Positions 18,149-51,625 of a DNA stretch of 54,572 bases are shown here, piece after piece (within the stretch, counting starts at the first letter, position 1; the number at the start of each line of letters is the position of its first letter). Origin of the DNA: a virus (Duplodnaviria; Caudoviricetes). The stretch spans positions 1 through 54,572 of IMG/VR virus record IMGVR_UViG_3300036832_000372. The stretch is one strand, 5' to 3'. The notes below the pieces were generated by a model. The model was not told the origin of the DNA. It saw nothing but the letters and a program-made list of their open reading frames with translations, and did no database searches. The position numbers and the translations under genes were made by a program.

Positions 18149-18160
18149 AGGAGGCACAGC

Positions 18161-18388: not shown

Positions 18389-18978
18389 CTGACATCCTCA
18401 GCGACATCGACCTCGCGGCCGCGGAGTCGACGAGCACCGTGAACTACCCGGTCGTCGACAACGACTTCTTCCGGTCAGTCAATGCGATATGGCCCGAGCT
18501 CCTCAACCACCAGGCGCTCGTCTCTCCAGCTCGAAACGGCATGAATCGGTTCACCGGCAAGCTGATGCAGGGGTGGCCGCACGTCGAGCAGTCGATGGAG
18601 GTGATCTTCGCGACGCCCTACCACGAGAGAGTGCTGCGCCGCTGGGTCGGCAGCTTCGTCCCGATGCTCCTCGGCGAGAACTTCGTCGAGCGGATCGTCA
18701 TGAGATTCTACTGGGCGATCATCACGGGGATAGATCTGTGGGAGCCTGACTACCGTATCCGCCAGGTCTACTTCATGGGGAACGCTCTGTCCGGGTGGTC
18801 ACCGCTGCCGTCGAGCAGCGCGGCCGCTATGGTCCGCCTCGGCGACGCGATCTTCAGGAACGAGGGAGTCTACCGCCCCCGCGGTCACCTTGGCGACTTC
18901 ACTCCCGCCGACACCAAGCAGTCAGCTCTCACCGGCAAGGGTGACGGCCTCTGGGATGTGGAGAGCACTCCGGGATGA
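18385..18978 (+). CDS. Baseplate wedge protein, P2 gpW/T4 gp25-like
   Basis: GMNRFTGK..GWPHVEQS..IFATPYHERVLRRWVGS..WEP. Confidence 0.88.
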   Translation: MTDILSDIDLAAAESTSTVNYPVVDNDFFRSVNAIWPELLNHQALVSPARNGMNRFTGKLMQGWPHVEQSMEVIFATPYHERVLRRWVGSFVPMLLGENFVERIVMRFYWAIITGIDLWEPDYRIRQVYFMGNALSGWSPLPSSSAAAMVRLGDAIFRNEGVYRPRGHLGDFTPADTKQSALTGKGDGLWDVESTPG

Positions 18979-25975: not shown

Positions 25976-26583
25976 TGCGCAAGGCACTCTGGCTCGCGAT
26001 CGGACTTTTCATCGGGTCACTCGGCGTCGCCATCGGTCAATTCGGCGGCGATGTTGCGCCAGCTACGTTCCTCGGCAACGTCGGCGGGACGCGTGCGCCT
26101 GCAGCGGCGATCCCGCTTTCCCATGCGTTCAGCTTCGCGAACCTGCAGCAGCTGCCAGCGTACACCTATCCGTGCAACAACACTGCGTCACTGGCCGACA
26201 TGCAATCGTGCGCCGCGACCGCACCGACCGCGCCGCTCTACACCGATGGCGCGACGATCTGGATTCACCAGGGGGCATGGGTCGGAAACGGCCCGGTGCC
26301 GACGCCGTCCGGGACCTGCACGGTCTCGGCGCAGGGCGGTGGCACCACGGTCGGCCGCTTCACCGCGGCCGCGTGCGCTGCCGGCACCATCATTCTCACC
26401 TTCAACGTCACCGGCATGGCACCGACGCCGAGCGGCTGGTCGTGCAGCATGGACGACCAGACCACGACTGCGGCGGTCTTCAAGCAGACCGCGAATACCG
26501 CGACCAGCGTAACTTTCACCAATTCTGGTTCGGCCTCGGTCAACGGTGACGCTGTGACCTTCAGGTGTCAGGGGATGCAGTGA
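25972..26583 (+). CDS. Cys-rich fibre-like protein with signal peptide
   Basis: GGAGGA RBS before 25972; MMRKALWLAIGLFIGSLGVAIG; Thr/Gly/Cys-rich. Confidence 0.75.
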   Translation: MMRKALWLAIGLFIGSLGVAIGQFGGDVAPATFLGNVGGTRAPAAAIPLSHAFSFANLQQLPAYTYPCNNTASLADMQSCAATAPTAPLYTDGATIWIHQGAWVGNGPVPTPSGTCTVSAQGGGTTVGRFTAAACAAGTIILTFNVTGMAPTPSGWSCSMDDQTTTAAVFKQTANTATSVTFTNSGSASVNGDAVTFRCQGMQ

Positions 26584-30137: not shown

Positions 30138-30138
30138 T

Positions 30139-32652: not shown

Positions 32653-32665
32653 CGAAGGGAAACCT

Positions 32666-35137
32666 GTGATGGGCGAGAACGCTGTCATCTTTCGTGACAA
32701 CCAAGAGGTTCAGGCTCAGGATTTCAATAATCTTCAGGACTGGCTTGGTCAGTCGCTCGATCACGTCGTCGAAGACGCGATCGAGCCGAACATGTCTTAC
32801 ACCGGGTTCGCGATCTCGAAGTCAGCTCCCACGCAGGTCTCGGTGCAGCCTGGTCGCCTCTACTCGAAGGGTCAAGTCTACGCCAGGACCGACACAGCGA
32901 CGCTTGACTGCTTCAACGTGCTGCCAGTCACGCAGAAGAAGCAGATCGCCGTAGTGTGCTGGGGGACGACTCTCACTCAGAATACTCAGCCGCGCGACTT
33001 CATCATCGACGCTGACACTGGGGAGGCTCAGCCTCAGGCCGTCGATATGACGACGACGCGATACTGCAATGTCGATATCGTGCCTGGTGTCGAGAGCGCA
33101 TCTCCGCAGTACCCTACGATCGACGCCTCTGATCTCTTGATCGGCTACATCCTGTGCGACCCCACTGGCGTCGTGTCGTTCCAGCAGTCGACGGCTGGTC
33201 AGCTCGACAACATCTCCGACTTGTCGAACAAGATCATCTCACTCCAGAACTGGGCTGGCATCGTCAACGGCCAGATCGCTACGCTGGTGTCAGCGCTGTC
33301 GGCTCTCGCCGCTCAGCTCTCTAACTACACGCTGCTGACGGACTTCCAGAAGCTCGTCACGCTGGTCAACCAGATCTGGGACCTGATCCACCAGCCGCCA
33401 GCTTACATCTGGTACGGCACTGACAACTTCCTCGACGAGTCACTGTCGTTCACCACTGGTAACGTCGATGGAGCTTACTCCGCGAGGATCGAGGAGGGTC
33501 TGCGGTTCCCTGGAGGCACCGGGGTCCAGACGAGCACCCTCAGTCTCTTCAACCCTCAGGACCCCGGCGCCGCCAAGGCTGCAGACGGCTTCACCCTGCC
33601 GACCCCATCGGGAGCTCGGGTGCGGCTCGACTGCTCGTTCCCAGACTACCCGTGGATCGAGGAGAGGCTCCTTCAGTACGTCTACACTAGCTTCACCTTG
33701 CGACACCTGTACCCGTCGCGTCACCGCTTTCGGTGCGGCCCTCTGTGGCCAGTGTGCCCGCCCGCTCAGGTGTGGTGGTACCAGGCTCAGCTCGACCCGA
33801 CGACTCGCATCCTGTCGCTCCTCACCGAGACGTGGGAGCTCAAGCAGTGGGCTCAGATCGCCCAGCATCCAGAGAACAACTGCGACTGGCCGCAGCACAA
33901 GTTCCGTCGCTGGCGGTTCTTCTGGCGCGACTTCGTCGATGTGATGTATTGGTCTAAGCGGTTCGACAACTTCGACCACACTGGCCCGCACATCGCTCAG
34001 ACCTTCCTCAACGCTCAGGACGGCTGGCTCTCTGGCGTGACCTGCTTCATGATGGCTCCCAACGCAGTACCTCTCACGGTGATCGTCGCTGGTACGACCG
34101 ACCAGGGTGAGCCCGACCACCTCAACCAGACGATCAGGCAGGTCGTCATGCAGGGGCCCGATGTCACTGCATGCTTCGCCAACCCGATCCTCGTCGGAGA
34201 CATCTGGGCCCTGGGTGTCACTCCTCGAGGCACTATTCGTCGCTACCCCTTCCTGGTTCCAGTCTACGTGTTCCCGCTTCGGGTCAACTTTCCTCCAGTC
34301 TTCTTAGAGGCAGGGAAGCGATACTCGATATCTTTCTTGTCGCCGACAGGAGATCACCGATTCTCTATCTCTGACCGATGGGAGTGCCTCGGCATCCACC
34401 AGGGTGCCTACTGGGTCAACGGCTCTGGCGGCCTGTACCTGTGGCCGTCGCTGACGACCCCGAAGTCGCTCAGGTTCATGCTCCACTACGCTACGTGGGG
34501 TCAGTGGCAAGACAACACGAACGCCTCTGGAGGCGGTGTTCACATGGAGATCCAGCTCCAACCGCTTCAGATGACGGGTGGGATTGGTGGCATCGACGTG
34601 CTCGCAGATACCATCGTCCCACCCGCTACTGACCTCAGCTACCAGATCCAAGTCAACGGCCAGTGGTACCCGTTCGAGGAAGAGATATCCCCCACTATCC
34701 CTTCTCCACTCGCGTCCCTACCGCCTCTGGTGCCATTCAAGGCCGTATTCACCGGCACGACTGACGTGATGCCGGGAATAAATCTCGCTCAGCAGAGTCA
34801 GGTGCAGCTGACTGGCGGTCAGGCTAGCAGCTTTCACCACATCTCGCAGCCGATCACTCTCGGATCAGCTTGCACTCACGTCAAGGTGATCGCCAAGATC
34901 CTCGACTTCGACTCTAACCACCACTCCTGCAAGTGCTCGATCCACTTCGGCACCACTCACGACATACTACCCACTGTCACTGACGTCACCAACGAGGACG
35001 GCTCGCTCGACAGGTCGTGGGTCTTCACCGACTCGATTGCCTCAGGGGGTCAGTTCTATGTCGAGATCGACGGCACCACCGACAATGCGGTCCCTGGACG
35101 CTTCACCGTCGCTCAGCAAATCACCTACGCCAGCTAG
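32666..35137 (+). CDS. Baseplate/tail fibre attachment structural protein
   Basis: Follows gpI; QDFNNLQ, VSVQPGRLY, ARIEEGLRFP, IAQTF. Confidence 0.7.
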   Translation: MMGENAVIFRDNQEVQAQDFNNLQDWLGQSLDHVVEDAIEPNMSYTGFAISKSAPTQVSVQPGRLYSKGQVYARTDTATLDCFNVLPVTQKKQIAVVCWGTTLTQNTQPRDFIIDADTGEAQPQAVDMTTTRYCNVDIVPGVESASPQYPTIDASDLLIGYILCDPTGVVSFQQSTAGQLDNISDLSNKIISLQNWAGIVNGQIATLVSALSALAAQLSNYTLLTDFQKLVTLVNQIWDLIHQPPAYIWYGTDNFLDESLSFTTGNVDGAYSARIEEGLRFPGGTGVQTSTLSLFNPQDPGAAKAADGFTLPTPSGARVRLDCSFPDYPWIEERLLQYVYTSFTLRHLYPSRHRFRCGPLWPVCPPAQVWWYQAQLDPTTRILSLLTETWELKQWAQIAQHPENNCDWPQHKFRRWRFFWRDFVDVMYWSKRFDNFDHTGPHIAQTFLNAQDGWLSGVTCFMMAPNAVPLTVIVAGTTDQGEPDHLNQTIRQVVMQGPDVTACFANPILVGDIWALGVTPRGTIRRYPFLVPVYVFPLRVNFPPVFLEAGKRYSISFLSPTGDHRFSISDRWECLGIHQGAYWVNGSGGLYLWPSLTTPKSLRFMLHYATWGQWQDNTNASGGGVHMEIQLQPLQMTGGIGGIDVLADTIVPPATDLSYQIQVNGQWYPFEEEISPTIPSPLASLPPLVPFKAVFTGTTDVMPGINLAQQSQVQLTGGQASSFHHISQPITLGSACTHVKVIAKILDFDSNHHSCKCSIHFGTTHDILPTVTDVTNEDGSLDRSWVFTDSIASGGQFYVEIDGTTDNAVPGRFTVAQQITYAS

Positions 35138-38381: not shown

Positions 38382-40298
38382 ATGGGAACTGCTCCAGTCT
38401 TTGGCCTTCAATTCATCCAGCAAGACGACCAAGCGATGCCGGTCATCGGCGCCAACATGGACGTCATCGGCATCATCGGGCCGTCCTCGACGGCCGACCC
38501 GGAGATATTTCCCGAGAACACGCCAGTCCTCTTCTTCTCCAACGACACCGTCATGCTCTCTCACCTCGGGGCCGACGGCTACATTCCTGACGCGATCAAC
38601 GCGATCAACGCTCAGCTCGCGGACTTCCAGATAGCCGCTCAGCTGGTGATCGTCAGGACGCCGTACGGCGACAGCCTCGTCTCTGAGACGATGAAGCTCC
38701 AGCAGACCATCGCTCGCATCATGGGCGACTCGGTCCTCGGCACCGGCCTGTACGCGTTCCTCAAGGCTCCGAACACACTGTACTGCACGCCGAGGATCAT
38801 CATCGCGCCCGGGTACACCGGCCAGATGGCGAACTCCCTCGACACGCTGACGATCGGCGTCCCCGGCGTCGGGTACATCCCCGGCCAGCGATACGACATG
38901 ACGTTCGCGCTCGGGAGTGGAGAGCAGAACCTCACCACCGCAGTCCTGCCGCAAGCGCACGCCGTGGCTGACCCGAATGGGCACATCGGCGAGAACGAGC
39001 TGTTCATCGACACCTGGGGCGCCTGGTTCACCGTCGCTCCGACGGCTACTCTCCCGGCTCCCGACGGAACTCCCAAGCCGGCGTCGCAGGCGGTCGGTCA
39101 GTTCATCTTCAACGCTCAGCCCGGAGTGGGCTCGAAGATCACCATCAACTCACAGGACGTCACCTTCATCGCTGCCGCCGGTACGCCAACGGCTCACCAG
39201 GTCAACCTCGGAGCTAATCTCTCCGCGACCATCGACAACCTGGTCACCTACCTGATGGGGACTACAGGTCAGGCAGACCCCAACATCGGCCTCTGCACCT
39301 ACCAGAAGATCACCTCGACCTACCTCAGCATGAACGTGACTTCGGTGGCGGCCGCTGCCGCAGCCAACGACATCACGCTGGCGACGACCGTAGTCGGCTG
39401 TCAGTGCTCTCCTACCCTCCAGGGCGGAGCCGACGCCGAGGTCTCGACCCAGGCCACCGTGATGACGACGATGGCGCTCGGAGCCAACCCGGTCTGCGCC
39501 AACATGACTGGCGTCCTCGACACGCTGATCGCCCACGCCATCGTCGAGAGCGCGGGGACCTCGATGATCGCCGACGAGAACTGGAGGACCACTCTCAACT
39601 CCCAGAGGCTCATAGGCCTGTCAGGGGGCGTCAAGATCCTCGACCCGCAGACGGGCGACATCGTGGTGATGCCGCTGGCTCCGCGGATGGCCGGGGCCCT
39701 GGTCGCCGAGGACTTCAGGACCGGGTACCCGTTCCACTCGTGCGCTAACCGCGCGGTTCAGGGCATCGTCGGGCCCGCGAGGTCCATCGCGTTCTCGCTG
39801 ACTGACGGCGAGACCGAGGGCCAGATGCTGCTCGGAGCTAACCTCGGGATCGTCGCCAGGGGCCTGATCGGCGTCGAGAGCGCCATCAGCTCCGGCGGCT
39901 TCATCCTCATCGCCACCGACAACATGGGTGACGACGAGCTGTGGCGCATGTACAACGTCAAGAGAGGGCGGGACTTCATCCACCTGTCGCTGATGCCAGC
40001 CCTGCGGACCTACCTCGGCAGGACTAACATCGACCGGCAGACCGTAGCCAACGTCGAGGAGACCATCGCTCAGTGGCTCGGGCAGCTGACGGCTCTCCAG
40101 CAGATCCTCGGCTACAAGGTCACGTTCTCCGGGAGCCTCAACACCCCCGAGGAGATCAGGCTGGGTCACCTGACCGTGAGCTTCGCGGCCGAGGAGCCGC
40201 CCGTCCTGAAGAGGATCACCACCATGAGCGCCCGGTACAAGCCCGCCATCGACGCCATGGTCGCTCAGCTGGCCGAGCAGCTCGTGTTCAGCGGCTGA
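38382..40298 (+). CDS. Contractile tail sheath (P2 FI-like) with inserted domains
   Basis: VIGIIG, FPENTPV, TGLYAFL..TPRIIIAPGY, YNVKRGRDFI, AEEPPVLKRI. Confidence 0.92.
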   Translation: MGTAPVFGLQFIQQDDQAMPVIGANMDVIGIIGPSSTADPEIFPENTPVLFFSNDTVMLSHLGADGYIPDAINAINAQLADFQIAAQLVIVRTPYGDSLVSETMKLQQTIARIMGDSVLGTGLYAFLKAPNTLYCTPRIIIAPGYTGQMANSLDTLTIGVPGVGYIPGQRYDMTFALGSGEQNLTTAVLPQAHAVADPNGHIGENELFIDTWGAWFTVAPTATLPAPDGTPKPASQAVGQFIFNAQPGVGSKITINSQDVTFIAAAGTPTAHQVNLGANLSATIDNLVTYLMGTTGQADPNIGLCTYQKITSTYLSMNVTSVAAAAAANDITLATTVVGCQCSPTLQGGADAEVSTQATVMTTMALGANPVCANMTGVLDTLIAHAIVESAGTSMIADENWRTTLNSQRLIGLSGGVKILDPQTGDIVVMPLAPRMAGALVAEDFRTGYPFHSCANRAVQGIVGPARSIAFSLTDGETEGQMLLGANLGIVARGLIGVESAISSGGFILIATDNMGDDELWRMYNVKRGRDFIHLSLMPALRTYLGRTNIDRQTVANVEETIAQWLGQLTALQQILGYKVTFSGSLNTPEEIRLGHLTVSFAAEEPPVLKRITTMSARYKPAIDAMVAQLAEQLVFSG

Positions 40299-40372
40299 GG
40301 GAAGCTCGCTGGTACGCTTTTCCCCGTACCCCATCCCTGGGTATGGGGCGGCTGACAGGCCGCTCAGCGGCC
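40299..40372 (+). promoter_or_regulatory. Multi-hairpin intergenic element between sheath and tube
   Basis: CCCCGTACCC-CATCCCT-GGGTATGGGG and GGCCGC-TCA-GCGGCC stems. Confidence 0.45.
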
Positions 40373-40418
40373 ACTCTACGCGCAACGAGAGAGATATTAT
40401 CACAAGGAGTGACGCGAC

Positions 40419-41009
40419 ATGGCAGAGACTATCCTGACGCTCGACCAGGCCAACATGTTCTGCGGCCGCCAGCCGAGCGACGTCAACAACGGCCTCTACC
40501 TCGAGCTGACTGAGGTGAAGCTGCCGGCGCTGAACGAGCAGTACGTCGACCACAGGGCCGGCGGCGTGCCGATCGCCATCGAGATCGACACGATCTTCTC
40601 CAAGCTCGAGTCGACGTTCCAGCTCATCGGCTGGAACCCGAACGTGGCGACTCTGGTCGCCTCTTTCATGGCGGAGCAGAATGTGTTCTGGATCTATGGA
40701 CTCTTGCGAGACAGGCTCACCGCCGAGGCGATGAGGGTCACCGCCAAGATGAGGGGCCGGTTGGGCCTGGCCGACCCCCAGAACTGGAACCGGTCGGGAA
40801 CCCAGCACTGGAACTACGCGATCAAGGGCATCATCTCGTACGACTTAGTCGTCGGGAATAGCCCCATCTACAGCTGGGACTTCTTCGCCAACAGATTCGT
40901 CGTCGGCCAGTGGGACCGCAACGCCTCGATCAACGAGCTCCTTAACATCCCGATCGCGGCGGCTCCGCCGGTCCTCTCTGGGCCGATCGTCACGCCGGGG
41001 ACGCCGTAA
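40419..41009 (+). CDS. Major tail tube protein (P2 FII-like)
   Basis: EVKLPALNEQYVDHRAGG..KLESTF..MRGRLG..WDFFAN; AAGGAG RBS. Confidence 0.9.
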   Translation: MAETILTLDQANMFCGRQPSDVNNGLYLELTEVKLPALNEQYVDHRAGGVPIAIEIDTIFSKLESTFQLIGWNPNVATLVASFMAEQNVFWIYGLLRDRLTAEAMRVTAKMRGRLGLADPQNWNRSGTQHWNYAIKGIISYDLVVGNSPIYSWDFFANRFVVGQWDRNASINELLNIPIAAAPPVLSGPIVTPGTP

Positions 41010-41012
41010 GCC

Positions 41013-41525
41013 GTGGACACTCTCCGCAAGTCGGGCGGCTGGTGCGTCGAGCTGACGGTGCCCATCAAGCACGGGAACCGCGTCATCGAGGAGATCGACA
41101 TCAAGGCGCCGTCGATCCGGACCCTCACCAGGTGGCAGCGCGGTCAGATCCCGTCGTCGATGGCTCTCCTGTCAGAGCTGTCGGGGATATCAGAGTCAGT
41201 CCTCGACACCATCACCTACCCCGACGCCGACCGCGTGCTCCTGGCGCTGTTCAACGTCGTGCCGAAGCCGATCCAGAGCGACTTCTCGTCCGGCACCAGG
41301 CCCCTGTCCACGCCGGTGGAGGAGCTGCCCGAGCCCGCTCCCGGCACGAGACCCGTCGCGCAAGACGACCCCAGGTTCCCCTACCACGACGGGCCAGTCG
41401 TCGAGTCAGCCGTCGGCAACGTCTCGGTGTCGCGGCCGCCCGGGACGGAGCCGCCACCCGAGGAAGAGGCTCCGGTCAAGCCCCTGAACTTCGACCCCCC
41501 GCCAGTCATGAGGAAGGTCGTCTAG
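41013..41525 (+). CDS. Tail assembly chaperone (gpE/gp41-like) with Pro-rich tail
   Basis: VELTVPI..IEEIDIKAP..LSELSGI..D; lies between tube and tape measure. Confidence 0.8.
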   Translation: MDTLRKSGGWCVELTVPIKHGNRVIEEIDIKAPSIRTLTRWQRGQIPSSMALLSELSGISESVLDTITYPDADRVLLALFNVVPKPIQSDFSSGTRPLSTPVEELPEPAPGTRPVAQDDPRFPYHDGPVVESAVGNVSVSRPPGTEPPPEEEAPVKPLNFDPPPVMRKVV

Positions 41526-41526
41526 G

Positions 41527-44500
41527 GTGTCAGACGTCGACTACAACGTACGGATAACTGGGTCCGACGAGACGAAGGCTGCCTTCGAGTCGGCGGCGAA
41601 GAACGCGGTCGAAGCCTCCAAGGTGATGACCGAGGACTTCAAGAAGCTGTCTGATGCCGTCGAGAAGCAGACCCAGCAGATAACGAAGCTCGCCAAGCGA
41701 GCCTCAGGGCAGACGCCGGAGGATCTCGCCGGCGCCTTCGGCAAGGCCGGGGAGAGCGTCATCGGCTTCTCCGAGGGGATGACCAAGGCCCTGTCGGTGG
41801 GCGCCGTCACCGCATTCGCTGTCGCTGCCGTCAACGAGTTTGCCAAGGTCGAGGCAGCTCAGAACCGCGTCCTCGCCACCGGTCAAGCGAACCGCAAGGA
41901 GCTCGAGGAGCTCAACGAGGTGTGGGAGAGGAAGCTAGCCCCCACCATCGGCAAGGGGATAGAGGAGATCAACAAGGACTACGCCATCCTCTTAGCTGGC
42001 AACGCCAAGCTCAAGGATCACTTCGAGGAGATCGAGCAGTACGCCAAGATCACCAGGAGCACGTTCCAGGACAGCTTCAACATGGTCAGCACCGCCACCT
42101 ACGGCGGTCTCAAGCCAGAGGACATCCCGTCGTTCCTGGCCGACCTTGCCAACGCCTACCGGGAGAACGGCAACGCCGCTACCGTGGCGCACGACAACGC
42201 CTCGAAGGCTCTCAAGGAGCTAGGTATCACTGGAGGGGAGTTCCAGAAGCAGCTCGGCGAGGCGATCGCCAATCTCGGGAACGTCACCAACAGCAGCACC
42301 ACGGCCGCCGAGCAGATCACCGCCGTTCTCAAGGAGATCGCTCTCCACAAGGGCGAGTCCGGCATGATGAGGATGATCGATCAGCTCAAGGACGGCAACA
42401 TAAATCTCAATCAGTTTCTCGACATGCTGACGATGAAGAATCATCCTGACTCTCGCAACTTTCAAAGGATGATGGAGAACGATGCACCACTGCGGACGTT
42501 CGCCACCAACTGGGCCGAGGTGATCAAGAATGGACCCGGTCAATTCCATGACGACCTTCGCAAGCTGAGCGAGGACCCGGCCCTCGTAGGTAAGACCGAG
42601 CAGGAGATCAATCGCCTGGGCACCGCGATATCCGCCTTTGGCACTACCATCATCTCTCTCACGCCTGCTAACACGATCATCGGAGGACTCGCCGATGCGT
42701 TAAATCGCCTGAATGATGCGGTGAAGAGCCTCAAGTCAGCGTCGCCTGCCAGCGTCATCAGGGGCATCACCGGTGACATCGTCATCGGGCCGAAGACTCC
42801 TCAGGATCAGCCGAAGGGCGGTCCTGGAAGCCGCAGCGTCAGGCACAGAGGAGGCATCTTCGAGAAGCCGGTCACGACTCCGCAGCGGTTCGGTGGCAGC
42901 GCTCCTGTGTTTAGCGGAAAAAGCTCCTTCGACCTGTCGAGCTGGCCGAAGTCGACCAACATCGAAGACCGCCGCGGCGAGGTCTACCCGGGCGGGGGAG
43001 AAGCCGGTGGCTCAGTCAATCCGCAGTACTTCACTGGCTCCGGGGGCAGCGACAATACTGTGATGGCCTCGCTTCAGGCTGCCAACGAGGATGAAGTCCA
43101 CGCGATGGCGATGCGCGGCTACGGCGATCGCGGAGCCGCCTTCACCCCAGGGGCAGGCGAGTCGCCGTGGTCGCTAGAGGCGCAGGTCGAAGGTTGGGGG
43201 TTTGGCACTGGTCGCGGCGGTGGCGGTGCCGGTTATGGCTATGGCGGCTTCCGCCGCGGCATCGGTGCGGCTGGTAGACGTGGCCGCGGCGGTAGTGGTC
43301 CCGGTGGCAGCGGTCCAGGTGGCAGCGTCGACTCCAGTGGCCCGGGCGGCAGTGTGCAGCAGACAGCACCATGGCCAACGGGAGCAGGTGTGTCCGGTGG
43401 CAAGATGATGCAGACGCCGTGGGGGCCGATGCCGACCGGTAGCGGTCCCGGTGGTGCCGGTACATTGCCGTGGCCTGGCACTGGTGGCGGCTTCGAGGGC
43501 AAGAACGTTCAGTCGATTGTCGCCGATGAGTGGCGAAAGGTCGGCATGTCGGACGCTGGCATCCGTGGCGTGCTTGCTAACATCAAGGAGGAAAGCAGTT
43601 TTGATCCGACGTTGAGACACGCAGACCAGCCGCGATTTTCCGGCGAAGCGCACTTCGCCCACGGGCTGTATCAGGAGGGCGGCGACGAGTGGAATAACTA
43701 CGCTAAGTGGCTCAACGGCAGGGACTGGAGAGACCCGCGACTGCAGAGCCAGTTTGCCGCTGAGAACCTGAAGAAGAACTACCCCAAAGTCTGGGCGCAG
43801 ATGAATCAGAGCGACGCCCAACAAGCCGCGGCTGCCTATGTGCGAGGTTATCTCAAACCAAAAGCCGAGTACCAGGCAAGCCGCGTCGCCGGGTTTCAGC
43901 GCCGTGGCATCCCGACGTTGGATCAGTTCGGCGTCGGTAAGGCGACTGCGAGCACGGGTGCCGCACCCAGCGTCTCTGGTGGCGGTGGCATGGTCCAGAC
44001 CCCGTGGGGGGCGATGCCATCGGGCACTTCTCATGCCGGAATTGCGAGTGGCGGTGATGGCGGCGGCGGCGGCGGCGGTGGCGGTGTTGCCGGTTCGGCT
44101 CGGCTCTCAGCCGTCGAGAATTATGCAGGCGGCAATGATCCGAATCGCGGGGCTTTGCTGGCCGCGGCAAGAGAGGCATCGAAGTATCTGCCAGAGGGTT
44201 ACACCGTCGAAGCTTACTCCGGACAGCGAAGCGGAAAGGATCAAGGGCCGCACCTCTCCGGCAGCGCCATCGACTTCCGCATCAGGGACCCACAAGGAAG
44301 GATGCTGGCCAACTATCAGGACCCCACTCAATACAGGATGTATGAGCAATTTCACCAAGACATTCATTCGGTCTTGCAGCAGACCAATCCTGCACTTGCG
44401 GCGCGTCATCGCTGGGGCGGATATTTCCTTCACGGGTCCAACAATTACGGCGTCATGGATACGATGCACAGCGATCTCGCTGGTCCCGGAAGGATGGCAG

Positions 44501-44979
44501 CAGGTAGCTGGGAGCAAGGACGAACGGCAGGGGGCAGCTTTTACTCACCTAAGAGAGGTGTGACGGTTAATTGGAACGAAGCTCAGAGTCGAGGTATGGG
44601 CAAAGGCTACCGCCGCGGTGACTATCCTAGAGGTTCGCAACCATCCGTAGCTACTCCGGCTGCTGCACCCTACATGCCCGAGATGCTCGACGCCGATCGT
44701 CAGCGCAATATGCCACCGAAAGATGATGATTACGATCCTCTAGGTGGAGCGATCCCTGACAAGTACAACAGGCTCGGCGGGAAGGATCACAGTGAGCTTG
44801 AGAACATTCGCCGCCAGCGCGCGGAGCTGAGCAGACCGATCAAGACGACGATGAACGTTACCCACCCGCGGCAGCACTCGAAGGCCGAGCCACCGGAGCG
44901 TCACGAGTCCCGCATCAACTCGATAGCTCAGTCGCGCCTCGATCGCGGCAGATCTGCCAGTGACATAGGATACGCCTGA
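41527..44979 (+). CDS. Tape-measure-like protein 1 with tail-lysozyme and M15-like peptidase domains
   Basis: Helical N-terminal ~400 aa; Gly-rich linker; GVLANIKEESSFDP..HGLYQ; SGQR..PHLSGSAIDF..RWGGYF..DTMHSD. Confidence 0.82.
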   Translation: MSDVDYNVRITGSDETKAAFESAAKNAVEASKVMTEDFKKLSDAVEKQTQQITKLAKRASGQTPEDLAGAFGKAGESVIGFSEGMTKALSVGAVTAFAVAAVNEFAKVEAAQNRVLATGQANRKELEELNEVWERKLAPTIGKGIEEINKDYAILLAGNAKLKDHFEEIEQYAKITRSTFQDSFNMVSTATYGGLKPEDIPSFLADLANAYRENGNAATVAHDNASKALKELGITGGEFQKQLGEAIANLGNVTNSSTTAAEQITAVLKEIALHKGESGMMRMIDQLKDGNINLNQFLDMLTMKNHPDSRNFQRMMENDAPLRTFATNWAEVIKNGPGQFHDDLRKLSEDPALVGKTEQEINRLGTAISAFGTTIISLTPANTIIGGLADALNRLNDAVKSLKSASPASVIRGITGDIVIGPKTPQDQPKGGPGSRSVRHRGGIFEKPVTTPQRFGGSAPVFSGKSSFDLSSWPKSTNIEDRRGEVYPGGGEAGGSVNPQYFTGSGGSDNTVMASLQAANEDEVHAMAMRGYGDRGAAFTPGAGESPWSLEAQVEGWGFGTGRGGGGAGYGYGGFRRGIGAAGRRGRGGSGPGGSGPGGSVDSSGPGGSVQQTAPWPTGAGVSGGKMMQTPWGPMPTGSGPGGAGTLPWPGTGGGFEGKNVQSIVADEWRKVGMSDAGIRGVLANIKEESSFDPTLRHADQPRFSGEAHFAHGLYQEGGDEWNNYAKWLNGRDWRDPRLQSQFAAENLKKNYPKVWAQMNQSDAQQAAAAYVRGYLKPKAEYQASRVAGFQRRGIPTLDQFGVGKATASTGAAPSVSGGGGMVQTPWGAMPSGTSHAGIASGGDGGGGGGGGGVAGSARLSAVENYAGGNDPNRGALLAAAREASKYLPEGYTVEAYSGQRSGKDQGPHLSGSAIDFRIRDPQGRMLANYQDPTQYRMYEQFHQDIHSVLQQTNPALAARHRWGGYFLHGSNNYGVMDTMHSDLAGPGRMAAGSWEQGRTAGGSFYSPKRGVTVNWNEAQSRGMGKGYRRGDYPRGSQPSVATPAAAPYMPEMLDADRQRNMPPKDDDYDPLGGAIPDKYNRLGGKDHSELENIRRQRAELSRPIKTTMNVTHPRQHSKAEPPERHESRINSIAQSRLDRGRSASDIGYA

Positions 44980-47291
44980 TGGCAGACAACGAAACCGTAA
45001 CAAAAGTCGTCGTAACCGCCGACATCAAGCTCAAGGGAGCGTTCGATCAAGCGGCTCGAAGCTTCAATCAGTACTTCAAGGCGACCGACGACTTCTGGAA
45101 GCACCAGACCCAGCGCGTCAAGGACCACGATGACGCTGCCAAGAAGCTGGCCAGGCGGGTGTCGGGTTCGGGGAAAGAGGAGATCGCCGGTGCGTTCGGC
45201 TACGCCGCTGCCGCAGTCGTTGGCTTTGCCGAAGGCATGGCCGAGGCTTCCAAGCACGCGGCCGAGGAGATCGGAGAGTACGCCAAGGAGTCGGTGTTCG
45301 CCGTAGCCGACTACGAGAAGGCCTACAACCGCCTCATCGCGACAGGGAAGATCAACAGAGAGGAGATCGAGCACCTCGAGGAGAGCTGGCGAGCCAAGCT
45401 GGGACCGTCGGTCGACAAGGGCAACGAGAAGCTCATGCAGGACCTGACCAAGCTTCTCAGCCTCAACGAGAATCTCAAAGAATACTTCCCAACATTAGAG
45501 AGAATCACGAAGACGACCGGAGCCAGCTTCACGTCGGTCCTCAACATGGCCAACGCCGCCTGGGTCGCCGGCGTCAAGAACGAGGACATGCCAGAGTACC
45601 TCAAGCGGGTCGGCTGGATGTTCCAGGAGATCGGTCAGCAGGGCATCGCCGCCTCCACCAAGGTGAGTCAGAGATACAAGATACTGGGGATACAGGGAGC
45701 CGAACTCAACAAGGATATCGCCACCGTCGTGACAGGTCTCACCGGGTCGGTGCTCGGCAACGCCTCCCAGGTTGGGGAGAGTCTCATCACCTTCATGGAG
45801 CAGGTCGCCAAGGGCGGCGGCGACTCCAAGATGCAGGCGTTCGTGACCGACCTGAGGACGGGGAAGATGACCCTGATCGAGTTTCTCGACATGCTGGTCG
45901 AGAAGAACGATCCTACCGCCAGGGCCTTCCAGCGTCTCCTCGAGAACGACCCGGTGACCAAGGGTCTAGCTACTGCCTACAAGGAGAGGCAGGAGCTGAT
46001 TCACGAGCTTCACGATAAGCAGTTCCCTGATCTCGAGAAGCACCCGATGGTGAACTCCGAGACGGCGAACGCGATCAACTATCTTGTCTTCGAGCTGAGA
46101 GAGCTGAACAAAGAGGTAGGAAATCTTCTCCACATAGGAGATGCCATAGCGTTCATAGCCAACGCCTTGGAGAGAACTAACTCGGCTCTCAGGCATCTTC
46201 CTGAGTTCACCAAGCCAGAGAACGTCCTCAAGGACGTCGCTGAGCCGAGCACCATCGGCGTGCTGTCCGGCCTGGCTGGCATCATGAAGATGATCCTGGA
46301 GCAGGCTCGCAAGAAGCAGACAGAGCCACCCCCTGGTGAGCCAAAGAAGTTCGCCGAGGGTGGCACCGTCGATCGCGATACCTTGGCGGTGACCAGCGAG
46401 ACCGGTGCCCCAGAGGCGATCGTGGGCGCTGACGGCACCATCAAGAGGATGACCGACAAGGCAACGATATCTACTCTCAACGCTGGTGACAGCGTCGTGC
46501 CGTTCGCCGGCAAGGGCGGTGGCAGTGGCGGCGGTGGAGCGTCAGGCTCTGTAGAGATGCCGAGCGGCCTGCCGAGGCAGCTCACGCCTGGCTTCAACCC
46601 TGACACCGCGAGGTATGGCCCGAGCAGTGAGGGCTGGTACTATACCAAGGGCACCAACTACGGCGGTCATCCGGGTGACCCGAGTCGCGGCATCCCGAGG
46701 ATAGTGGACCCCGGTGACCCGTTTGGCTCGAACCAGGCCCGGGTGAAAGAGGAGCATCAGGGCGTCTCGCTGCCAGGAACTCCCTTCGGAGGCACTGAGT
46801 CGCGCGGCCCTGAGCTCAACCAGACATATCTGGTGCAGCTGCCCGATGGATCTTACACGCTGCAGCGCGTAACCGACACCGGACCCGGGCACAAGGGTCA
46901 CGGTGGGATCGACATATCTGTCGGCGCCATCGTACGCGAGGGCCAGAATCCTCGCAACTTTGGTGGGGATGTCCGCTACAGGAAATACACAGGCGGGCCT
47001 CTGCCTGAGAACATGCGCATCGGCAGGAACGCTGTCACTGCCGGCGGATATCTCGACCCAAGCAGCGGTGAGGGGTCGCTGCCGTATGGCTCACCGGAGT
47101 ACGACATCCCGAACCGGTACCGGCCAGAGCCAGCGCAGGCATTCAGGTCGACGATGAAGGTCAAGATGGAAGTCGAGCCACCTCCGCGTCACCAGATCGA
47201 GCGTGCCGGGCGCCACCAGTCTCAGATCGACACTCATCGCCTGCGTCGCAGGCGTCAGGCTGAGTCCGCCGGCAACATAGGGTTCGCGTAG
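44979..47291 (+). CDS. Tape-measure-like protein 2 (paralog) with RlpA/DPBB-like domain
   Basis: N-terminus colinear with TMP1; FAEGGTV..TLAVTSETGAPEAIV; VTDTGP..GIDIS. Confidence 0.8.
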   Translation: MADNETVTKVVVTADIKLKGAFDQAARSFNQYFKATDDFWKHQTQRVKDHDDAAKKLARRVSGSGKEEIAGAFGYAAAAVVGFAEGMAEASKHAAEEIGEYAKESVFAVADYEKAYNRLIATGKINREEIEHLEESWRAKLGPSVDKGNEKLMQDLTKLLSLNENLKEYFPTLERITKTTGASFTSVLNMANAAWVAGVKNEDMPEYLKRVGWMFQEIGQQGIAASTKVSQRYKILGIQGAELNKDIATVVTGLTGSVLGNASQVGESLITFMEQVAKGGGDSKMQAFVTDLRTGKMTLIEFLDMLVEKNDPTARAFQRLLENDPVTKGLATAYKERQELIHELHDKQFPDLEKHPMVNSETANAINYLVFELRELNKEVGNLLHIGDAIAFIANALERTNSALRHLPEFTKPENVLKDVAEPSTIGVLSGLAGIMKMILEQARKKQTEPPPGEPKKFAEGGTVDRDTLAVTSETGAPEAIVGADGTIKRMTDKATISTLNAGDSVVPFAGKGGGSGGGGASGSVEMPSGLPRQLTPGFNPDTARYGPSSEGWYYTKGTNYGGHPGDPSRGIPRIVDPGDPFGSNQARVKEEHQGVSLPGTPFGGTESRGPELNQTYLVQLPDGSYTLQRVTDTGPGHKGHGGIDISVGAIVREGQNPRNFGGDVRYRKYTGGPLPENMRIGRNAVTAGGYLDPSSGEGSLPYGSPEYDIPNRYRPEPAQAFRSTMKVKMEVEPPPRHQIERAGRHQSQIDTHRLRRRRQAESAGNIGFA

Positions 47292-47292
47292 C

Positions 47293-47841
47293 ATGCCCAA
47301 CACAGCTCAAGCAGGCCTGCCAGACTTTCGCACGACGAGGCCGGACACCACTGGCTGGTACGCTCCCTCGCTCAGCGTCGCTGGCGAGGGCAGCACGAAC
47401 AGGCCTGTCCTCTACAGCTGGGGGCATGTTCTGTTCCAGGTGATGCCCCTCAACGTCCACGAGGTCGACTACGAGTCAGCGACGGACTGGGCGCACAAGG
47501 AGATTGCGGGGGCGCCGATCTACCGCGAGTGGGTCGGTGAGAACGATGAATTAGTTCACCTGAGGGGACGGATCTTCCCCTACCGCATCGGCGGCATGAA
47601 CGAGCTCGAGAGCATGGAGTCGATGCGTCGGAAGGGGGTGCCGAACCCTCTGATCAGAGGTAACCCGGCGATGATGCTGGGATGGTTCGTGTGCGAGCGC
47701 CTCGTTCGCTCCCACACCTTCCTGTCCACTCAGGGCATCGGGCAGCAGGTGACGTTCGAGGCGGTGATGGCGCGGATGCCAGTCCCCGCGTCGGACCAGT
47801 ACTTCGCTCAGATGTGGCAGACCAACGGAGCTGGAGGGTAG
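47293..47841 (+). CDS. Tail protein, P2 gpU-like
   Basis: WAHKEIAGA..EWVGE..LRGRIFP..LGWFV. Confidence 0.88.
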   Translation: MPNTAQAGLPDFRTTRPDTTGWYAPSLSVAGEGSTNRPVLYSWGHVLFQVMPLNVHEVDYESATDWAHKEIAGAPIYREWVGENDELVHLRGRIFPYRIGGMNELESMESMRRKGVPNPLIRGNPAMMLGWFVCERLVRSHTFLSTQGIGQQVTFEAVMARMPVPASDQYFAQMWQTNGAGG

Positions 47842-47842
47842 C

Positions 47843-48115
47843 ATGGCGATCACCGGATTCGAGCTCGTCCAGGTGACGACGGAGTATGTCACAGCAGACT
47901 TGATCATCTGGAAGCGATACATGAACAAGGCGTTCGGCATGGTCGAGCTGATGCTCGACGCCAACCCCCAGCTCGCCTTCGCTCACCGGTCATCGCCATT
48001 CATCCCGGTCGGGACCTACCTGAGAGTGCCGATTGACCCTGGACTCATAGCGGGGCGGCCTCAGCCGAAGAGTCAGGACAGCCTGTGGACTGACAAGCTA
48101 GGCTACACGATCTGA
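47843..48115 (+). CDS. Tail protein, P2 gpX-like
   Basis: DLIIWKRY..VELMLDANPQLA..IPVGTYLRVP..LW. Confidence 0.9.
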   Translation: MAITGFELVQVTTEYVTADLIIWKRYMNKAFGMVELMLDANPQLAFAHRSSPFIPVGTYLRVPIDPGLIAGRPQPKSQDSLWTDKLGYTI

Positions 48116-49368
48116 TGGCGCTCACCCTCACTCTCGCTGACCCAGAGATCTTCGATCCTTATTCCTCCCTGGCAGACCCGATCCAGTCGAACCGCCTCCG
48201 CGCCTACGTCAAGATCGAGATCGGCAGCGGCAGCTACTTCATGGACGTCACCAGCAAGGTCGACCCTCACCTGGTCATGGTGAGGATACTGACCGGTGCG
48301 CACATCGAGGACTACCAGTGCGAGATCGAGCTCGACGACAGGGACGGATCACTCCCTATCCCGCCGATCGAGTCGCCGCTGAACATCAGCCTCGGGTGGG
48401 TGGGGGAGAATCTCCATCTAGTGTGGGAAGGCGTCATCCACGACATCGAGCACGGGTTCGGCCGCAAGCAGGGCGGCCGCCGGATGTGGATACACGGTCT
48501 CGGCGCGGAGATGCTCGGAGGCGGCAAGGAGCCGCAGAACAATCACTGGGGCGAGGGAGCCAAGGACGGTCAGGAGAGCGGCATCAAGCTTCCCGTCTCG
48601 ACCGCCCTGAAGGCTGCCGCCAAGGAAGCGAACCACGAGATAGAGGTGCACCCGGACTTCGACAAGACCGAGCTCCAGAAGGACTGGTACCAGCAGGCCG
48701 GCGAGAGCTACTACCACTTCGCCAAGCGGCTGGCCGACGAGTACGGAGCGGTGTTCCGCGTCAAGGCCGGCAACAAGGGCCAGTTCACCAAGCAGGGCCA
48801 GAACATCGACGGCACGCCCACACCGAACGTCATGGCAGTGTGGGGCAAGAATCTGATCGGCTGGAGAGTCAGGCCCGTCTCGACGCGACAGATGTGGGCC
48901 CAGACCAGCGGACACTTCTTTGACGTCGGAAAGTCGATGTGGGATCAAGTCAAGAGCGCTGTCACGGCGTCAACGCCGTTCAACTTCGCCTCAGCTGGGT
49001 TCCAGCGGGCTCAGCCTGCAGCCAACCAGGAGCAGGCCAGCGGACAGAACCAGGGTGACGACGACGGCATCGGTCAGCAGCAGGGTCAGGGCCGCATCGT
49101 CATCAACGGCGAGCCGACCGCTCAGGGCAACTGCATCGTGCAGCTGTCTGGCGCTAGGCCCGGCGTCGACGGCTCGTACTGGGCTCAGACGATCGAGCAC
49201 ATCTACAGCAGGCAGGGCTACGTCACGTGGTGCGACGTCCAGGCGGTGCAACTCACTGACGCCGAGCTCGCCTATCTTCACTTCAAGCCGCCGCTCCCGC
49301 CGCCGCGACCGCCTGAGGCGCCTCAGGCGCCGCCCGCCGTACCGCCTAATCTGCAACAAGGAGTCTAG
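48115..49368 (+). CDS. Baseplate hub, P2 late control gpD-like
   Basis: CEIELDDRDG..LGW, QAGESYYHFAKRLADEYGA, G.RPGVDGSY..IEH..SRQGY.T. Confidence 0.9.
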   Translation: MALTLTLADPEIFDPYSSLADPIQSNRLRAYVKIEIGSGSYFMDVTSKVDPHLVMVRILTGAHIEDYQCEIELDDRDGSLPIPPIESPLNISLGWVGENLHLVWEGVIHDIEHGFGRKQGGRRMWIHGLGAEMLGGGKEPQNNHWGEGAKDGQESGIKLPVSTALKAAAKEANHEIEVHPDFDKTELQKDWYQQAGESYYHFAKRLADEYGAVFRVKAGNKGQFTKQGQNIDGTPTPNVMAVWGKNLIGWRVRPVSTRQMWAQTSGHFFDVGKSMWDQVKSAVTASTPFNFASAGFQRAQPAANQEQASGQNQGDDDGIGQQQGQGRIVINGEPTAQGNCIVQLSGARPGVDGSYWAQTIEHIYSRQGYVTWCDVQAVQLTDAELAYLHFKPPLPPPRPPEAPQAPPAVPPNLQQGV

Positions 49369-49370
49369 AA

Positions 49371-49745
49371 ATGGTCGCTTCTCTAGAAGACGTGGTGCTC
49401 GACTTCGGCCTGAACACTCTCCACGCGAACAGTTCGTTCCTCTCGATCTGCGCCGCTGAGCCGACGACGATAGCTGTCGCGTCCAGCACTGGTCTCCTCG
49501 GATACAAGAGCTGGGGCGCCGGTGGCGTGTTTGGAGCGATGGCTCCAGGATCTCCCAACGGGAGGCAGGTGACGTCGAGCCCGATCACTGACGGCACCAT
49601 CACGACCTCTGGCACTGCCTCGTGGTGGGCCGTCTACGCCGCGGGCACTCTGCACGCCCACGGCACTCTGTCGGCCGCCCAGGTCGTCACCGCCGGCAAC
49701 ACGTTCACGTTGACGTCATTCAGCATCCGCATACCCAACCAGTGA
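49371..49745 (+). CDS. Virion structural protein (beta-sandwich)
   Basis: ITDGTITTSGTASWWA..VTAGNTFTLTSFSI. Confidence 0.7.
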   Translation: MVASLEDVVLDFGLNTLHANSSFLSICAAEPTTIAVASSTGLLGYKSWGAGGVFGAMAPGSPNGRQVTSSPITDGTITTSGTASWWAVYAAGTLHAHGTLSAAQVVTAGNTFTLTSFSIRIPNQ

Positions 49746-49753
49746 AGGAAGTC

Positions 49754-51625
49754 ATGCTCGAAGCAACACTCAGTCCGAACACACACGAGTGCCGCCACGG
49801 CAAGTTCACTATCTTCAACGAGGATGAGCTCGTCGGGATGTCGCTCGCCATGTACGGCGAGTACTCCGAGGGTGAGGTCGTCGTCTTCCAGACGTGCCTC
49901 CGCGAGGGGAACGTCGTCGTCGAGGTCGGGGCTAATATCGGTGCCTTCACAGTGCCGATGGCTAAGATCGTCGGCGAGAGCGGCATGGTCATCGCGTTCG
50001 AGGCGGCGATGGCCAACGTGTCGCTGCTCCACGCTAACGTCAAGCAGAATGACCTGTCCAACGTTGCAGTCATCCCCGTCGCTGCCAGCGACAGGGCTGG
50101 TGAGCTCGAGGTGTCGCGGCAGGACGCTCTCCACGCCTACACCAGGAGAGACATCAACACTGGCGCCTTTCGAGTGCCGTGCCGCACCATCGACAGCCTG
50201 AGCTTGCCGAAGTGCAACTTCATCAAGATCGACGTCGATCGCCACGAGATCCAGGTCCTCAGGGGCGCCGAGGAGACGATCAAGAGGTGCAGGCCGATCA
50301 TCTACGTGGAGAACGAGGACCAGGGGAAGAGCGAGGCTCTGATCGCCTGGCTGGTCGACCACGGCTATCGCCTCTACTGGCACAGGCCGAGCCAGTACAA
50401 CCAGAAGAACTTCCGCGGCGAGAAGCGGAACGTGTTCGGCACGCTGATCTCGATCATGATGCTGTGCGTCCCTGACGACGATTGGAGCTACGACGTCCGC
50501 GGTCTCGACGAGGTGGCGGACATCCGTCAGGATGACGATATGTTCAACCGGGAGATCGTCAGGTACGCGAAGATAGTCCGGAAGCGGCCAGACGACCTGA
50601 TGAGCCGCCTGCTGCAGGCGCACTACCTCAACCTGATGCAGTTCAGCTCTGAGGCCAGAGACCTGATCGCCGAGAACCTAGCGATCGATCCGAGTCACCA
50701 GGCGTCGAGGAACATCAAGGCGCTGATGGACCTCCAGGACGGGAACTGGCACGAGGGCTGGCAGGGGTACGAGCTCAGGTACGGTCACGCTAACCTTCAC
50801 CTCTTCGGCGGCCACCGTCAGCACCTCGACGCCGATGGCAGGAAGATCCCTCGCTGGAACGGCTCCCCCACTCAGGAGCCAGTGCTGATCTGGACCGAGC
50901 AGGGCTTCGGCGATCAGATCATGTTCGCCAGGTTCATGAGGCACGTCCTCAAGCGAGCGCCTCACGCGTTCATGGAGGTGCAGCCTGAGCTGTTCGAGCT
51001 GTTCGAGTACTCTGACTCGACCCTCGGCTTCGAGTTCTACGACGCCGTATTCCGATCTCGGCGGTACCTGCCACAGTACACCAGGCACCTGCCGTTACCG
51101 TCGGTGCCAGCCACTCTCGACGCCGACGAGAGCATGATCAGGATGACCGAGCCGTACCTCATCGTGGACCCCGACACCGTCGCCAACTGGACCTTCGGCG
51201 GCAGGAACCCGTTCGCCGCAGGCCGCGACCCCCTCAACGGGACACGGGTCGGCCTGTGCACCGTCGGGTCCCTGACCTCGGAGAGACCCTACACCAGGGA
51301 CCTCCCGGCGGATCTGGTAGCCGAGTTCGTCAAGCAGCACGGGCCGTTCTTCTCGCTGGAGAGCTCCGGTCAGTTCGAGTCGTTCGCCACCACGGCCGCC
51401 GCCATCATGGCCCTCGACCTGGTCATCACGGTCGACACTTCGATCGCTCATCTCGCGGGGGCGCTGGGGAAGCCAGTGTGGCTGCTCCTCTCGTGGGACC
51501 CCGACTGGCGGTGGGGGCTCTACGGAGAGAAGACGATATGGTACCCGTCGATGAGGATCTTCCGGCAGCCGAAGTTCAGAGACTGGAAGTCAGTCCTTGA
51601 GAGGGTCGGTGCGGAGCTGGCGTGA
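49754..51625 (+). CDS. FkbM-family methyltransferase + TPR + GT-B (GT9-like) glycosyltransferase fusion
   Basis: VVEVGANIG, IKIDVD..E; helical linker; EQGFGDQIMFARF; LDLVITVDTSIAHLAGALGKP..DWRW..WYPSMRIFRQ. Start at 49754 after AAGGA. Confidence 0.88.
   Translation: MLEATLSPNTHECRHGKFTIFNEDELVGMSLAMYGEYSEGEVVVFQTCLREGNVVVEVGANIGAFTVPMAKIVGESGMVIAFEAAMANVSLLHANVKQNDLSNVAVIPVAASDRAGELEVSRQDALHAYTRRDINTGAFRVPCRTIDSLSLPKCNFIKIDVDRHEIQVLRGAEETIKRCRPIIYVENEDQGKSEALIAWLVDHGYRLYWHRPSQYNQKNFRGEKRNVFGTLISIMMLCVPDDDWSYDVRGLDEVADIRQDDDMFNREIVRYAKIVRKRPDDLMSRLLQAHYLNLMQFSSEARDLIAENLAIDPSHQASRNIKALMDLQDGNWHEGWQGYELRYGHANLHLFGGHRQHLDADGRKIPRWNGSPTQEPVLIWTEQGFGDQIMFARFMRHVLKRAPHAFMEVQPELFELFEYSDSTLGFEFYDAVFRSRRYLPQYTRHLPLPSVPATLDADESMIRMTEPYLIVDPDTVANWTFGGRNPFAAGRDPLNGTRVGLCTVGSLTSERPYTRDLPADLVAEFVKQHGPFFSLESSGQFESFATTAAAIMALDLVITVDTSIAHLAGALGKPVWLLLSWDPDWRWGLYGEKTIWYPSMRIFRQPKFRDWKSVLERVGAELA

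Follow-up and report, generated by a model that had tools for sequence, protein, structure and literature searches.

The window analysed here is the whole of the 54,572-base IMG/VR record IMGVR_UViG_3300036832_000372, a viral metagenomic sequence of an uncultured soil phage with an estimated completeness of 59%, and our subject is the slot of the tape-measure protein (TMP) in its P2-type contractile tail module. The tape measure is the textbook single-protein ruler: one gene encodes it, it forms an oligomer in the tail lumen, and tail length is proportional to protein length. In the window this slot holds two genes on the plus strand, TMP1 (41527-44979; 1150 amino acids (aa), GTG start) and TMP2 (44979-47291; 770 aa, ATG start), both positioned between a tail assembly chaperone gene (41013-41525) and a gpU-like gene (47293-47841). 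Based on Pfam and PHROG matches together with position, the module runs in the order sheath, tube, chaperone, TMP1, TMP2, gpU, gpX and gpD. The genes are tightly packed. The chaperone frame stops 1 nucleotide (nt) ahead of the TMP1 start, the TGA stop codon of TMP1 (44977-44979) shares its A with the ATG of TMP2 (44979-44981) in the string TGATG, and an AGGA stands about 10 nt 5' of the TMP2 start. No promoter-like or terminator-like site was found on the plus strand of 41013-47291. A TMP1-TMP2 fusion by frameshift was considered and rejected; no slippery heptamer was seen at the junction by eye, and no dedicated scan was run.

TMP1 and TMP2 are paralogs over a shared N-terminal domain. They align by BLASTP with 28% identity over 564 aligned columns (E 7e-51), and a six-frame search of the record with TMP2 matched its residues 10-427 to the TMP1 region with 33% identity (E 8.5e-63). 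The similarity spans the first ~420 residues, corresponding to 41527-42786 in TMP1 (~420 aa) and 44979-46253 in TMP2 (~425 aa). The C-termini match weakly as a pair (31% over 58 aa, E 0.003), but K1106, R1125, R1137 and G1148 are invariant across nine aligned family sequences, and the match is therefore real at the level of the family. Both proteins have the same layout: an N-terminal domain rich in Ala, Leu, Glu and Lys that includes a moderately hydrophobic stretch near residues 70-106 (88-106 in TMP1), linkers of 17-33% glycine, globular modules, and an Arg-rich C-terminal peptide. An earlier note on this DNA, made from its letters and open reading frames (ORFs), had described two coupled paralogous TMP genes in a single P2-type slot, colinear over their first ~400 aa, with matching C-termini and different middles. 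All of this stands: the coordinates, the 1-base overlap and the alignments bear out the coupled pair, and the two middles differ (see below).

The assignment to tape measures comes from gene position and from weak matches of TMP1 to phrog_1533 (E 6.2e-6) and phrog_28 (E 0.004) and of TMP2 to phrog_1272 (E 2.4e-5). A homolog in the related contig L020 passes PF10145 (34.7 bits, cut-off 33.2), and matches to TMP_3 are weak. The Gly-rich linker of TMP1 (42787-43506, 27% Gly) contains the motif AAFTPGAGESPW at residues 537-548 (43135-43170). Of 15 sequences scanned that belong to the TMP clade or are related to it, 10 have this motif, namely eight of the ten TMP1- and TMP2-type proteins plus the proteins P0005 and P0008, whereas 0 of 14 slot ORFs scanned from other relatives have it; it is also absent from TMP2 of the window and from more distant single TMPs. 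The motif type can be written AAFTPGAGE..W, is preceded by N-D-A-x-V-H-x-M-A, and is strongly conserved in the TMP1-type proteins, in most TMP2-type proteins and in P0008.

The TMP family is rare. When 1.84 billion cluster representatives were searched with a profile built from both N-terminal domains, 16 proteins scored E <= 1e-3 and just five of these reached E <= 1e-30. In 50,697 phage records, nothing matched the region 38382-49368 by megablast, and tblastn with either TMP2 or the N-terminal domain of TMP1 was also negative; a word-indexed protein search with TMP2 recovered only TMP2 itself among 7999 scored candidates. Because pattern scans with TMP and sheath patterns in bacterial and archaeal species-representative genomes gave no relative, no prophage or host was identified. 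A search for P0008 in viral contigs gave no match, and the nine-sequence TMP alignment was too divergent for pattern scanning.

Pattern scans of viral contigs yielded four close relatives, L006 (the contig of L003), L007, L008 and L009. The TMP pair lies between chaperone and gpU in all four; it is complete in L006, L007 and L009, and the second gene of L008 runs past the contig end. We refer to the orthologs of TMP1 and TMP2 as T1 and T2. T1 orthologs have 1146-1206 aa and T2 orthologs 735-796 aa, with 735-782 aa for those that are complete in the close relatives, despite their differing enzyme cargo, and by ORF coordinates the pairs of L006-L009 overlap by 1 or 4 nt. Both frames are intact in all four complete copies. 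The synteny survey in related phages that the earlier note had proposed finds the second copy neither sporadic nor decaying among these close relatives. In addition, a Logan contig of sequencing run X1 covers 44095-47900 with zero differences and bridges the TMP1/TMP2 junction, although X1 may be the source sample and its contig is for this reason non-independent support. Short pieces identical to both TMP genes are also present in another soil run, X2, in which some bins are uncovered and no listed piece bridges the junction.

In order to place the pair among more distant phages, we used a scan anchored on the sheath, which gave 23 loci. With the window and L007 added, the slot was judged in 13 contigs, and 12 loci that stop short of the slot's end were excluded. 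The pair is present in six of the 13 contigs (five in one sheath clade, plus L023), and the other seven carry a single TMP of 1053-1417 aa (L013, L014, L032, L017, L020, L025 and L030). The C-terminus of T1 type is the same type as in these single-TMP relatives, and the nearest of them show a sheath identity of 74-76%. L013 is part of a complete 88.8-kb record with terminal repeats, in which a two-row profile finds one TMP match. As a separate observation, the 3.5-kb metagenome contig L010, from a more distant relative (gpU 67% identical), carries at positions 1-1857 a TMP with a T1-type C-terminus directly 5' of gpU, and is cut at its 5' end.

The trees date the pair relative to this group. 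Sheath sequences group the double-TMP contigs with 100/100 support, as sister to the single-TMP contigs L013, L014 and L032, and L023 falls elsewhere in that tree. A 22-row tree of the TMP N-terminal domains unites T1 and T2 in a 100/98 clade sister to L013/L014, with support of 87/89 for T1 and 97/95 for T2. The two clades mirror one another in internal order, each pairing L007 with L009 at 100/99. L023, a more distant relative (sheath 63% identical), has its own tandem pair in the same slot (13738-17817 and 17817-21317, 1-nt overlap, shared N- and C-terminal parts). Its proteins, of 1359 and 1166 aa, are 52% identical over the first 584 aa, making this a younger event in a separate lineage, and they group by themselves at 100/100, with the single-TMP contig L020 as their neighbour. 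We interpret these trees as a single duplication preceding the divergence of the five contigs and a second, independent one in the L023 lineage.

Mean pairwise identity of the N-terminal domains is 37.3% within T1, 36.2% within T2 and 28.8% between paralogs, and by these values the T1 and T2 copies are equally constrained. The C-termini have diverged by paralog: the Arg-rich C-terminus of TMP1 (44797-44976) is 53-59% identical to those of T1 orthologs over 116-123 aa, and the T2-type C-terminus of TMP2 (47139-47288) is 53-56% identical to those of T2 orthologs over 45 aa. The earlier note had suggested long co-retention of the two copies. The pair in the window and in all four close relatives, together with the mirrored clades, agrees with co-retention; the word long holds relative to this clade, since TMPs evolve much faster than the sheath (35-48% against ~85% identity), and set against the wider group the duplication is young.

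Regarding enzyme cargo, the lysozyme of TMP1 is firmly assigned. Phage_lysozyme2 (PF18013) matches residues 663-786 at 43513-43884 with E 1e-14 and 55.3 bits against a cut-off of 28.2, in agreement with the tail-lysozyme-like domain that the earlier note had placed at ~43500-43900. The second module of TMP1, at 44155-44520, is a probable metallopeptidase of M15/LAS type. Pfam, PHROGs and NCBIfam gave no match for it, a search of the record aimed at PF08291 found nothing at E <= 1, and the window sequence has no match to the M15 families PF08291, PF13539 and PF02557. The probable identity comes from conserved residues and weak homolog matches. H54, D61, D123, H126 and D128 are invariant in all five aligned homologs and form an H-x6-D pair and a D-x2-H-x-D group; H-x6-D followed by a later D-x2-H is the zinc-ligand pattern of LAS/M15 enzymes. 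VanY matches two of the five homologs (best E 0.0072) and M15_4 one (E 0.0086), all below threshold. A profile of the five sequences matches the PDB entries 9flh/9fln with E 3.4e-4 over the H-x6-D segment; these entries are labelled only 'LysM domain-containing protein', and a literature search for 9FLH, 9FLN and 9FLJ found no relevant paper. Hence the claim of the earlier note of an M15/LAS-like peptidase at ~44140-44480 is favoured by motifs and homologs and lacks a match to a hidden Markov model (HMM). As a lead only, a language-model feature search of the ESM Atlas with the M15-like part gave a best score of 0.88, and 11% of the members of the cluster at rank 6 (0.83) are Peptidase_M15_3.

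The M15-like module is 44% identical (E 2e-17) to a segment within the TMPs of Rhizobium phages P11VFA and vB_RleS_L338C, and it also matches the TMPs of RHph_I4 and of Mesorhizobium phage Cp1R7A-A1. By these matches it is a recurrent TMP module. A word-indexed protein search with the module gave 333 candidates, none at E <= 0.01. The sharing of the module with TMPs of Rhizobium and Mesorhizobium siphophages represents module exchange between TMPs of unrelated tail types, and it is a weak hint of an alphaproteobacterial soil host for the phage of the window, which together with the origin from soil points faintly to Rhizobiales.

TMP2 carries a probable DPBB (RlpA-like) domain at 46620-47024, an assignment that comes solely from a predicted ESM Atlas model. 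A structure search with this low-confidence model of TMP2 (predicted local distance difference test, pLDDT, 0.50) found four clusters matching residues ~548-682, with template-modelling (TM) scores of 0.47-0.51 by query and 0.40-0.72 by row; three of the four rows align to PF03330, the DPBB_1/RlpA-like family. The domain has no match in Pfam, PHROGs or NCBIfam, a targeted PF03330 search of the record gave none at E <= 1, and tblastn of the module against the phage records gave no match at E <= 1. Two C-terminal fragments elsewhere (P0019 and P0020) are 76-82% identical to the region. The RlpA/DPBB-like domain that had been proposed at ~46640-46980 accordingly has a model match and no HMM match, and of the three wall-degrading activities proposed for the pair, the lysozyme is firm and the other two are only probable. 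Searches of TMP1 and TMP2 against PDB by phmmer and with two- and three-sequence profiles gave only low-complexity or chance matches, and all probabilities from hhalign between shallow alignments of the cargo modules were below 2%.

The cargo differs between orthologs. The T1 protein of L006 matches Peptidase_M15_4 (25.5 bits, cut-off 25) and that of L008 matches Amidase_2 (35.4 bits, cut-off 26). Among T2 proteins, that of L009 has a VanY-like match below threshold (20.7 bits, cut-off 25), and those of L006 and L007 have no detectable enzyme domain. The first copy of L023 carries Phage_lysozyme2 and Peptidase_M23 and its second copy no detected enzyme. Taken together, the single-TMP relatives and L023 have Amidase_2, Phage_lysozyme2 and M23 above cut-off, and CHAP (23.6 bits, cut-off 26) and M15_4 below it. 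Judged from these matches, cargo is shuffled between orthologs. The assertion that each copy has its own different hydrolase cargo is therefore not upheld as a conserved property of the pair, given that no enzyme domain is detectable in the T2 proteins of L006 and L007. The G+C content at third codon positions is 0.66 and 0.74 in the cargo halves, 0.82 and 0.80 in the N-terminal domains, 0.88 in the sheath and 0.91 in the tube, and the lower values of the cargo halves fit module exchange as a weak inference.

From these results we propose, with a probability of roughly 0.6, that the pair arose by clade-specific tandem duplication of a cargo-bearing TMP gene and that both copies are loaded into the tail. 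That the pair is real and conserved is, in our view, close to certain. The tape-measure gene of a P2-type contractile module, already bearing hydrolases, would have undergone tandem duplication in an ancestor shared by a small group of uncultured soil phages, and both copies would have been retained as working genes. TMP1 would keep the ancestral layout of N-terminal TMP domain, Gly-rich linkers, two wall-hydrolase modules and T1-type C-terminus, and TMP2 would be the derived, shorter paralog, which shares the N-terminal domain, carries at most one cargo module and has a C-terminus that has diverged. Both proteins may be made from one message by coupled translation, the same chaperone may bind both through the shared N-terminal domain, and the related C-terminal peptide may anchor both in the gpD hub. 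The tube lumen would then hold TMP1 and TMP2, mixed or hetero-oligomeric; contraction would expel both, and the flexible linkers would give the enzyme modules the freedom to open the cell wall before the DNA follows. It is somewhat more likely than not that both are virion proteins of the tail lumen; that they co-assemble in one tail we hold to be less likely than not. Since the two T2 orthologs with no detectable enzyme keep both ends and their length class, the conserved role of TMP2 is more likely structural than that of one more enzyme.

Several points weigh against this reading. The TMP assignment combines gene position with weak PHROG scores (E 1e-5 to 1e-6), and the TMP models of Pfam and NCBIfam do not match TMP1 or TMP2 of the window. 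The lengths of the two proteins differ by 380 aa (1150 and 770), which is awkward for two extended rulers in one tail; because Gly-rich linkers can absorb slack, the difference fits shared as well as separate tails. The double-TMP contigs are all metagenomic, with 0 complete genomes among them and the window itself ~59% complete, and among the RNA runs none is listed as containing the stretch 41527-47291. The two-row profile used to count TMPs missed the known TMPs of L020 and L023, and its single-match counts are for this reason reliable for close relatives only. Moreover, in a reduced set of 13 rows the free tree is without the T1 clade, and in the approximately unbiased (AU) test neither the T1 clade (p 0.477) nor a grouping of the T1 and T2 proteins of L008 (p 0.14) is rejected. 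The L008 paralogs (9429-14911) have an N-terminal identity of 46%, and 69% in one 60-column stretch, compared to 23-37% in the other contigs. This unusual likeness suggests gene conversion between the L008 copies, or possibly a separate event there, and a single clean duplication is unproven for L008.

The proposal of duplication with loading of both copies has a stricter form, in which TMP1 and TMP2 would make an obligate hetero-oligomeric tape measure of fixed stoichiometry, with the shared ends serving as ruler and hub anchor and the enzyme modules staggered. We regard this form as less likely than not. If true, the unequal middles would stagger bulky enzyme modules along a narrow lumen and allow a payload larger and more varied than that of a homotrimer, and the independent duplication of L023 would mean that the hetero-oligomer solution evolved more than once.

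A different outcome of the same duplication, which the earlier note had offered as the alternative to a hetero-oligomeric ruler, would be two virion classes per burst, each with a homo-oligomer of TMP1 or of TMP2, differing in payload and perhaps in tail length, as bet-hedging against cell-wall states. Each protein does keep the N- and C-terminal parts needed for independent assembly, the two fall into separate conserved length classes (1146-1206 and 735-796 aa), and the C-terminal type is fixed per paralog. However, the T2 proteins of L006 and L007 would leave the class of different payload empty, and with translation so tightly coupled, a cell would be expected to make the two proteins together and in comparable quantity, which speaks for mixing. 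We therefore regard two virion classes as unlikely. Less probable again is that TMP2 is a TMP-derived assembly factor outside the virion, a scaffold or co-chaperone that folds or loads TMP1 and is later discarded or degraded. TMP2 is the shorter protein, its cargo is dispensable in two of the four complete copies (L006 and L007), and extra assembly help is conceivable where the chaperone is a single ORF with no frameshift partner. Against this, single-TMP relatives with the same chaperone type and similar cargo-bearing TMPs manage with one copy, TMP2 has retained the C-terminal peptide that is found in every TMP of the group, and the wall-hydrolase-like modules in the T2 proteins of the window, L008 and L009 are sensible only if delivered to the cell. 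Finally, an artefact or decaying copy (assembly chimera, frameshift-split TMP or pseudogene) is very improbable: adjacent coding sequences (CDS) annotated as TMP do occur as split genes, as in vB_RleS_L338C gp034/gp035, but TMP1 and TMP2 are full-length paralogs with their own N- and C-terminal ends rather than halves, the pair is found in five independent contigs and a separate assembly bridges the junction, and T2 is as conserved as T1, with intact frames in all four complete copies.

The other genes of the module are on the plus strand as well. The tail sheath (38382-40298) matches phrog_23 (E 4.4e-37) and is 84-87% identical to the sheaths of double-TMP relatives. The tail tube gene, P2 FII-like (40419-41009), matches PF04985, Phage_tube (E 7.5e-16, 58.8 bits, cut-off 22.4); L009 has at 8352-9486 two tandem tube genes, 81% and 80% identical to the single tube gene of the window. 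The chaperone is a single ORF of 170 aa, and every relative preserves its frame. Its N-half is conserved, its Pro-rich C-half varies, and the last few residues are conserved again. Its score for Phage_TAC_7 (PF10109; E 0.0039, 17.6 bits) is below the cut-off of 25, despite which position and N-terminal conservation fit a chaperone role. No conserved second (-1) frame was found for it among the relatives, and the other frames carry stops in L008. The ORF 41042-41557, which longest-ORF calling picks wrongly as the chaperone gene, was rejected as a high-GC shadow frame; only the 41013-41525 frame is conserved. We also rejected the idea that the duplication is tied to a frameshift-less chaperone, as single-TMP relatives carry the same chaperone type.

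Downstream of TMP2, the gpU-like tail protein (47293-47841) matches PF06995 (E 5.2e-21, 74.9 bits, cut-off 27.5), the gpX-like tail protein (47843-48115) matches PF05489 (E 4.4e-6, 26.6 bits, cut-off 22), and the gpD-like baseplate hub (48115-49368) matches phrog_52 (E 8.9e-20) and weakly PF05954 (E 0.0069). Just 3' of the hub, a 667-aa gene (49622-51625) combines a methyltransferase domain of FkbM type (PF05050, E 1e-19) with a weak GT9 (heptosyltransferase-like) match at its C-terminus, an odd passenger for a tail module. Upstream, the structural module of the window includes a large terminase, portal, prohead protease, major head protein, and baseplate and fibre genes. Four very large tail/fibre-like genes, of 1989, 1190, 837 and 823 aa, lie 5' of the sheath at 20006-35137; three of them have partial-length PHROG tail/fibre matches, and the 823-aa gene has a chance-level Pfam match only.

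A clade that stably keeps two unequal rulers in one tail module makes it testable which part of a TMP measures length, whether or not the lumen oligomer is mixed, and how much enzyme cargo a tail lumen can hold. With variable enzyme modules on Gly-rich linkers, the TMP slot would act as a swappable delivery platform, which is relevant to the engineering of tailocin-like particles and phage lysins. The pair is known here from the genomes of uncultured phages alone.

In P2, a single TMP, gpT, lies between the chaperone genes E/E' and gpU. The window shares with P2 the order of sheath, tube, chaperone, TMP, gpU, gpX and gpD. Unlike P2, it has two genes in the TMP slot, a chaperone with no frameshift partner, TMPs with Gly-rich linkers and enzyme modules, and an N-terminal domain with no detectable sequence match to the TMPs of cultured phages. 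Judged by its sheath, Microcystis phage Mae-JY30 (40.6% identity) is the nearest cultured phage, and its TMP slot contains a single gene. Cargo within a tape measure has precedents. Piuri and Hatfull are said to have described, in 2006, a peptidoglycan-hydrolase motif embedded in the TMP of mycobacteriophage TM4. The phiCbK TMP, gp95, carries a CHAP domain (PMC3556154). TMP1 and TMP2 resemble these two as lumen rulers with wall-degrading modules thought to act after ejection; unlike TM4 and phiCbK, which have one TMP gene, the window has two tandem paralogous TMP genes with cargo spread over both.

Two further systems bear comparison. Rhizobium phage vB_RleS_L338C has two neighbouring CDS, gp034 and gp035, that each bear the annotation tail length tape measure protein, and the M15-like module of TMP1 recurs in gp035 (44% identity, E 5e-21). 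However, no paralogy links the two (best E 1.9), and jointly they correspond to the single TMP CDS of RHph_I4; because of this lack of mutual similarity and the single CDS, they represent a split gene rather than a duplication. In RcGTA, the tail lumen is described (PMC7296036) as holding a TMP trimer and possibly a separate peptidase, g14. On that account, RcGTA resembles the window in that a wall-degrading enzyme is carried with the TMP in the tail channel and released before the DNA, and differs in that it uses a small stand-alone enzyme instead of a paralog of the TMP and has a non-contractile tail. Phrase searches of open-access full text (supplements outside their scope) found no description of tandem paralogous TMPs, and a published case may exist. 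Compared to these systems, hydrolase-bearing tape measures are known, and what appears new from the genomes considered here is a tandem paralogous pair that is conserved, co-diverging and arisen twice, an elaboration of the tape measure and not a new system.

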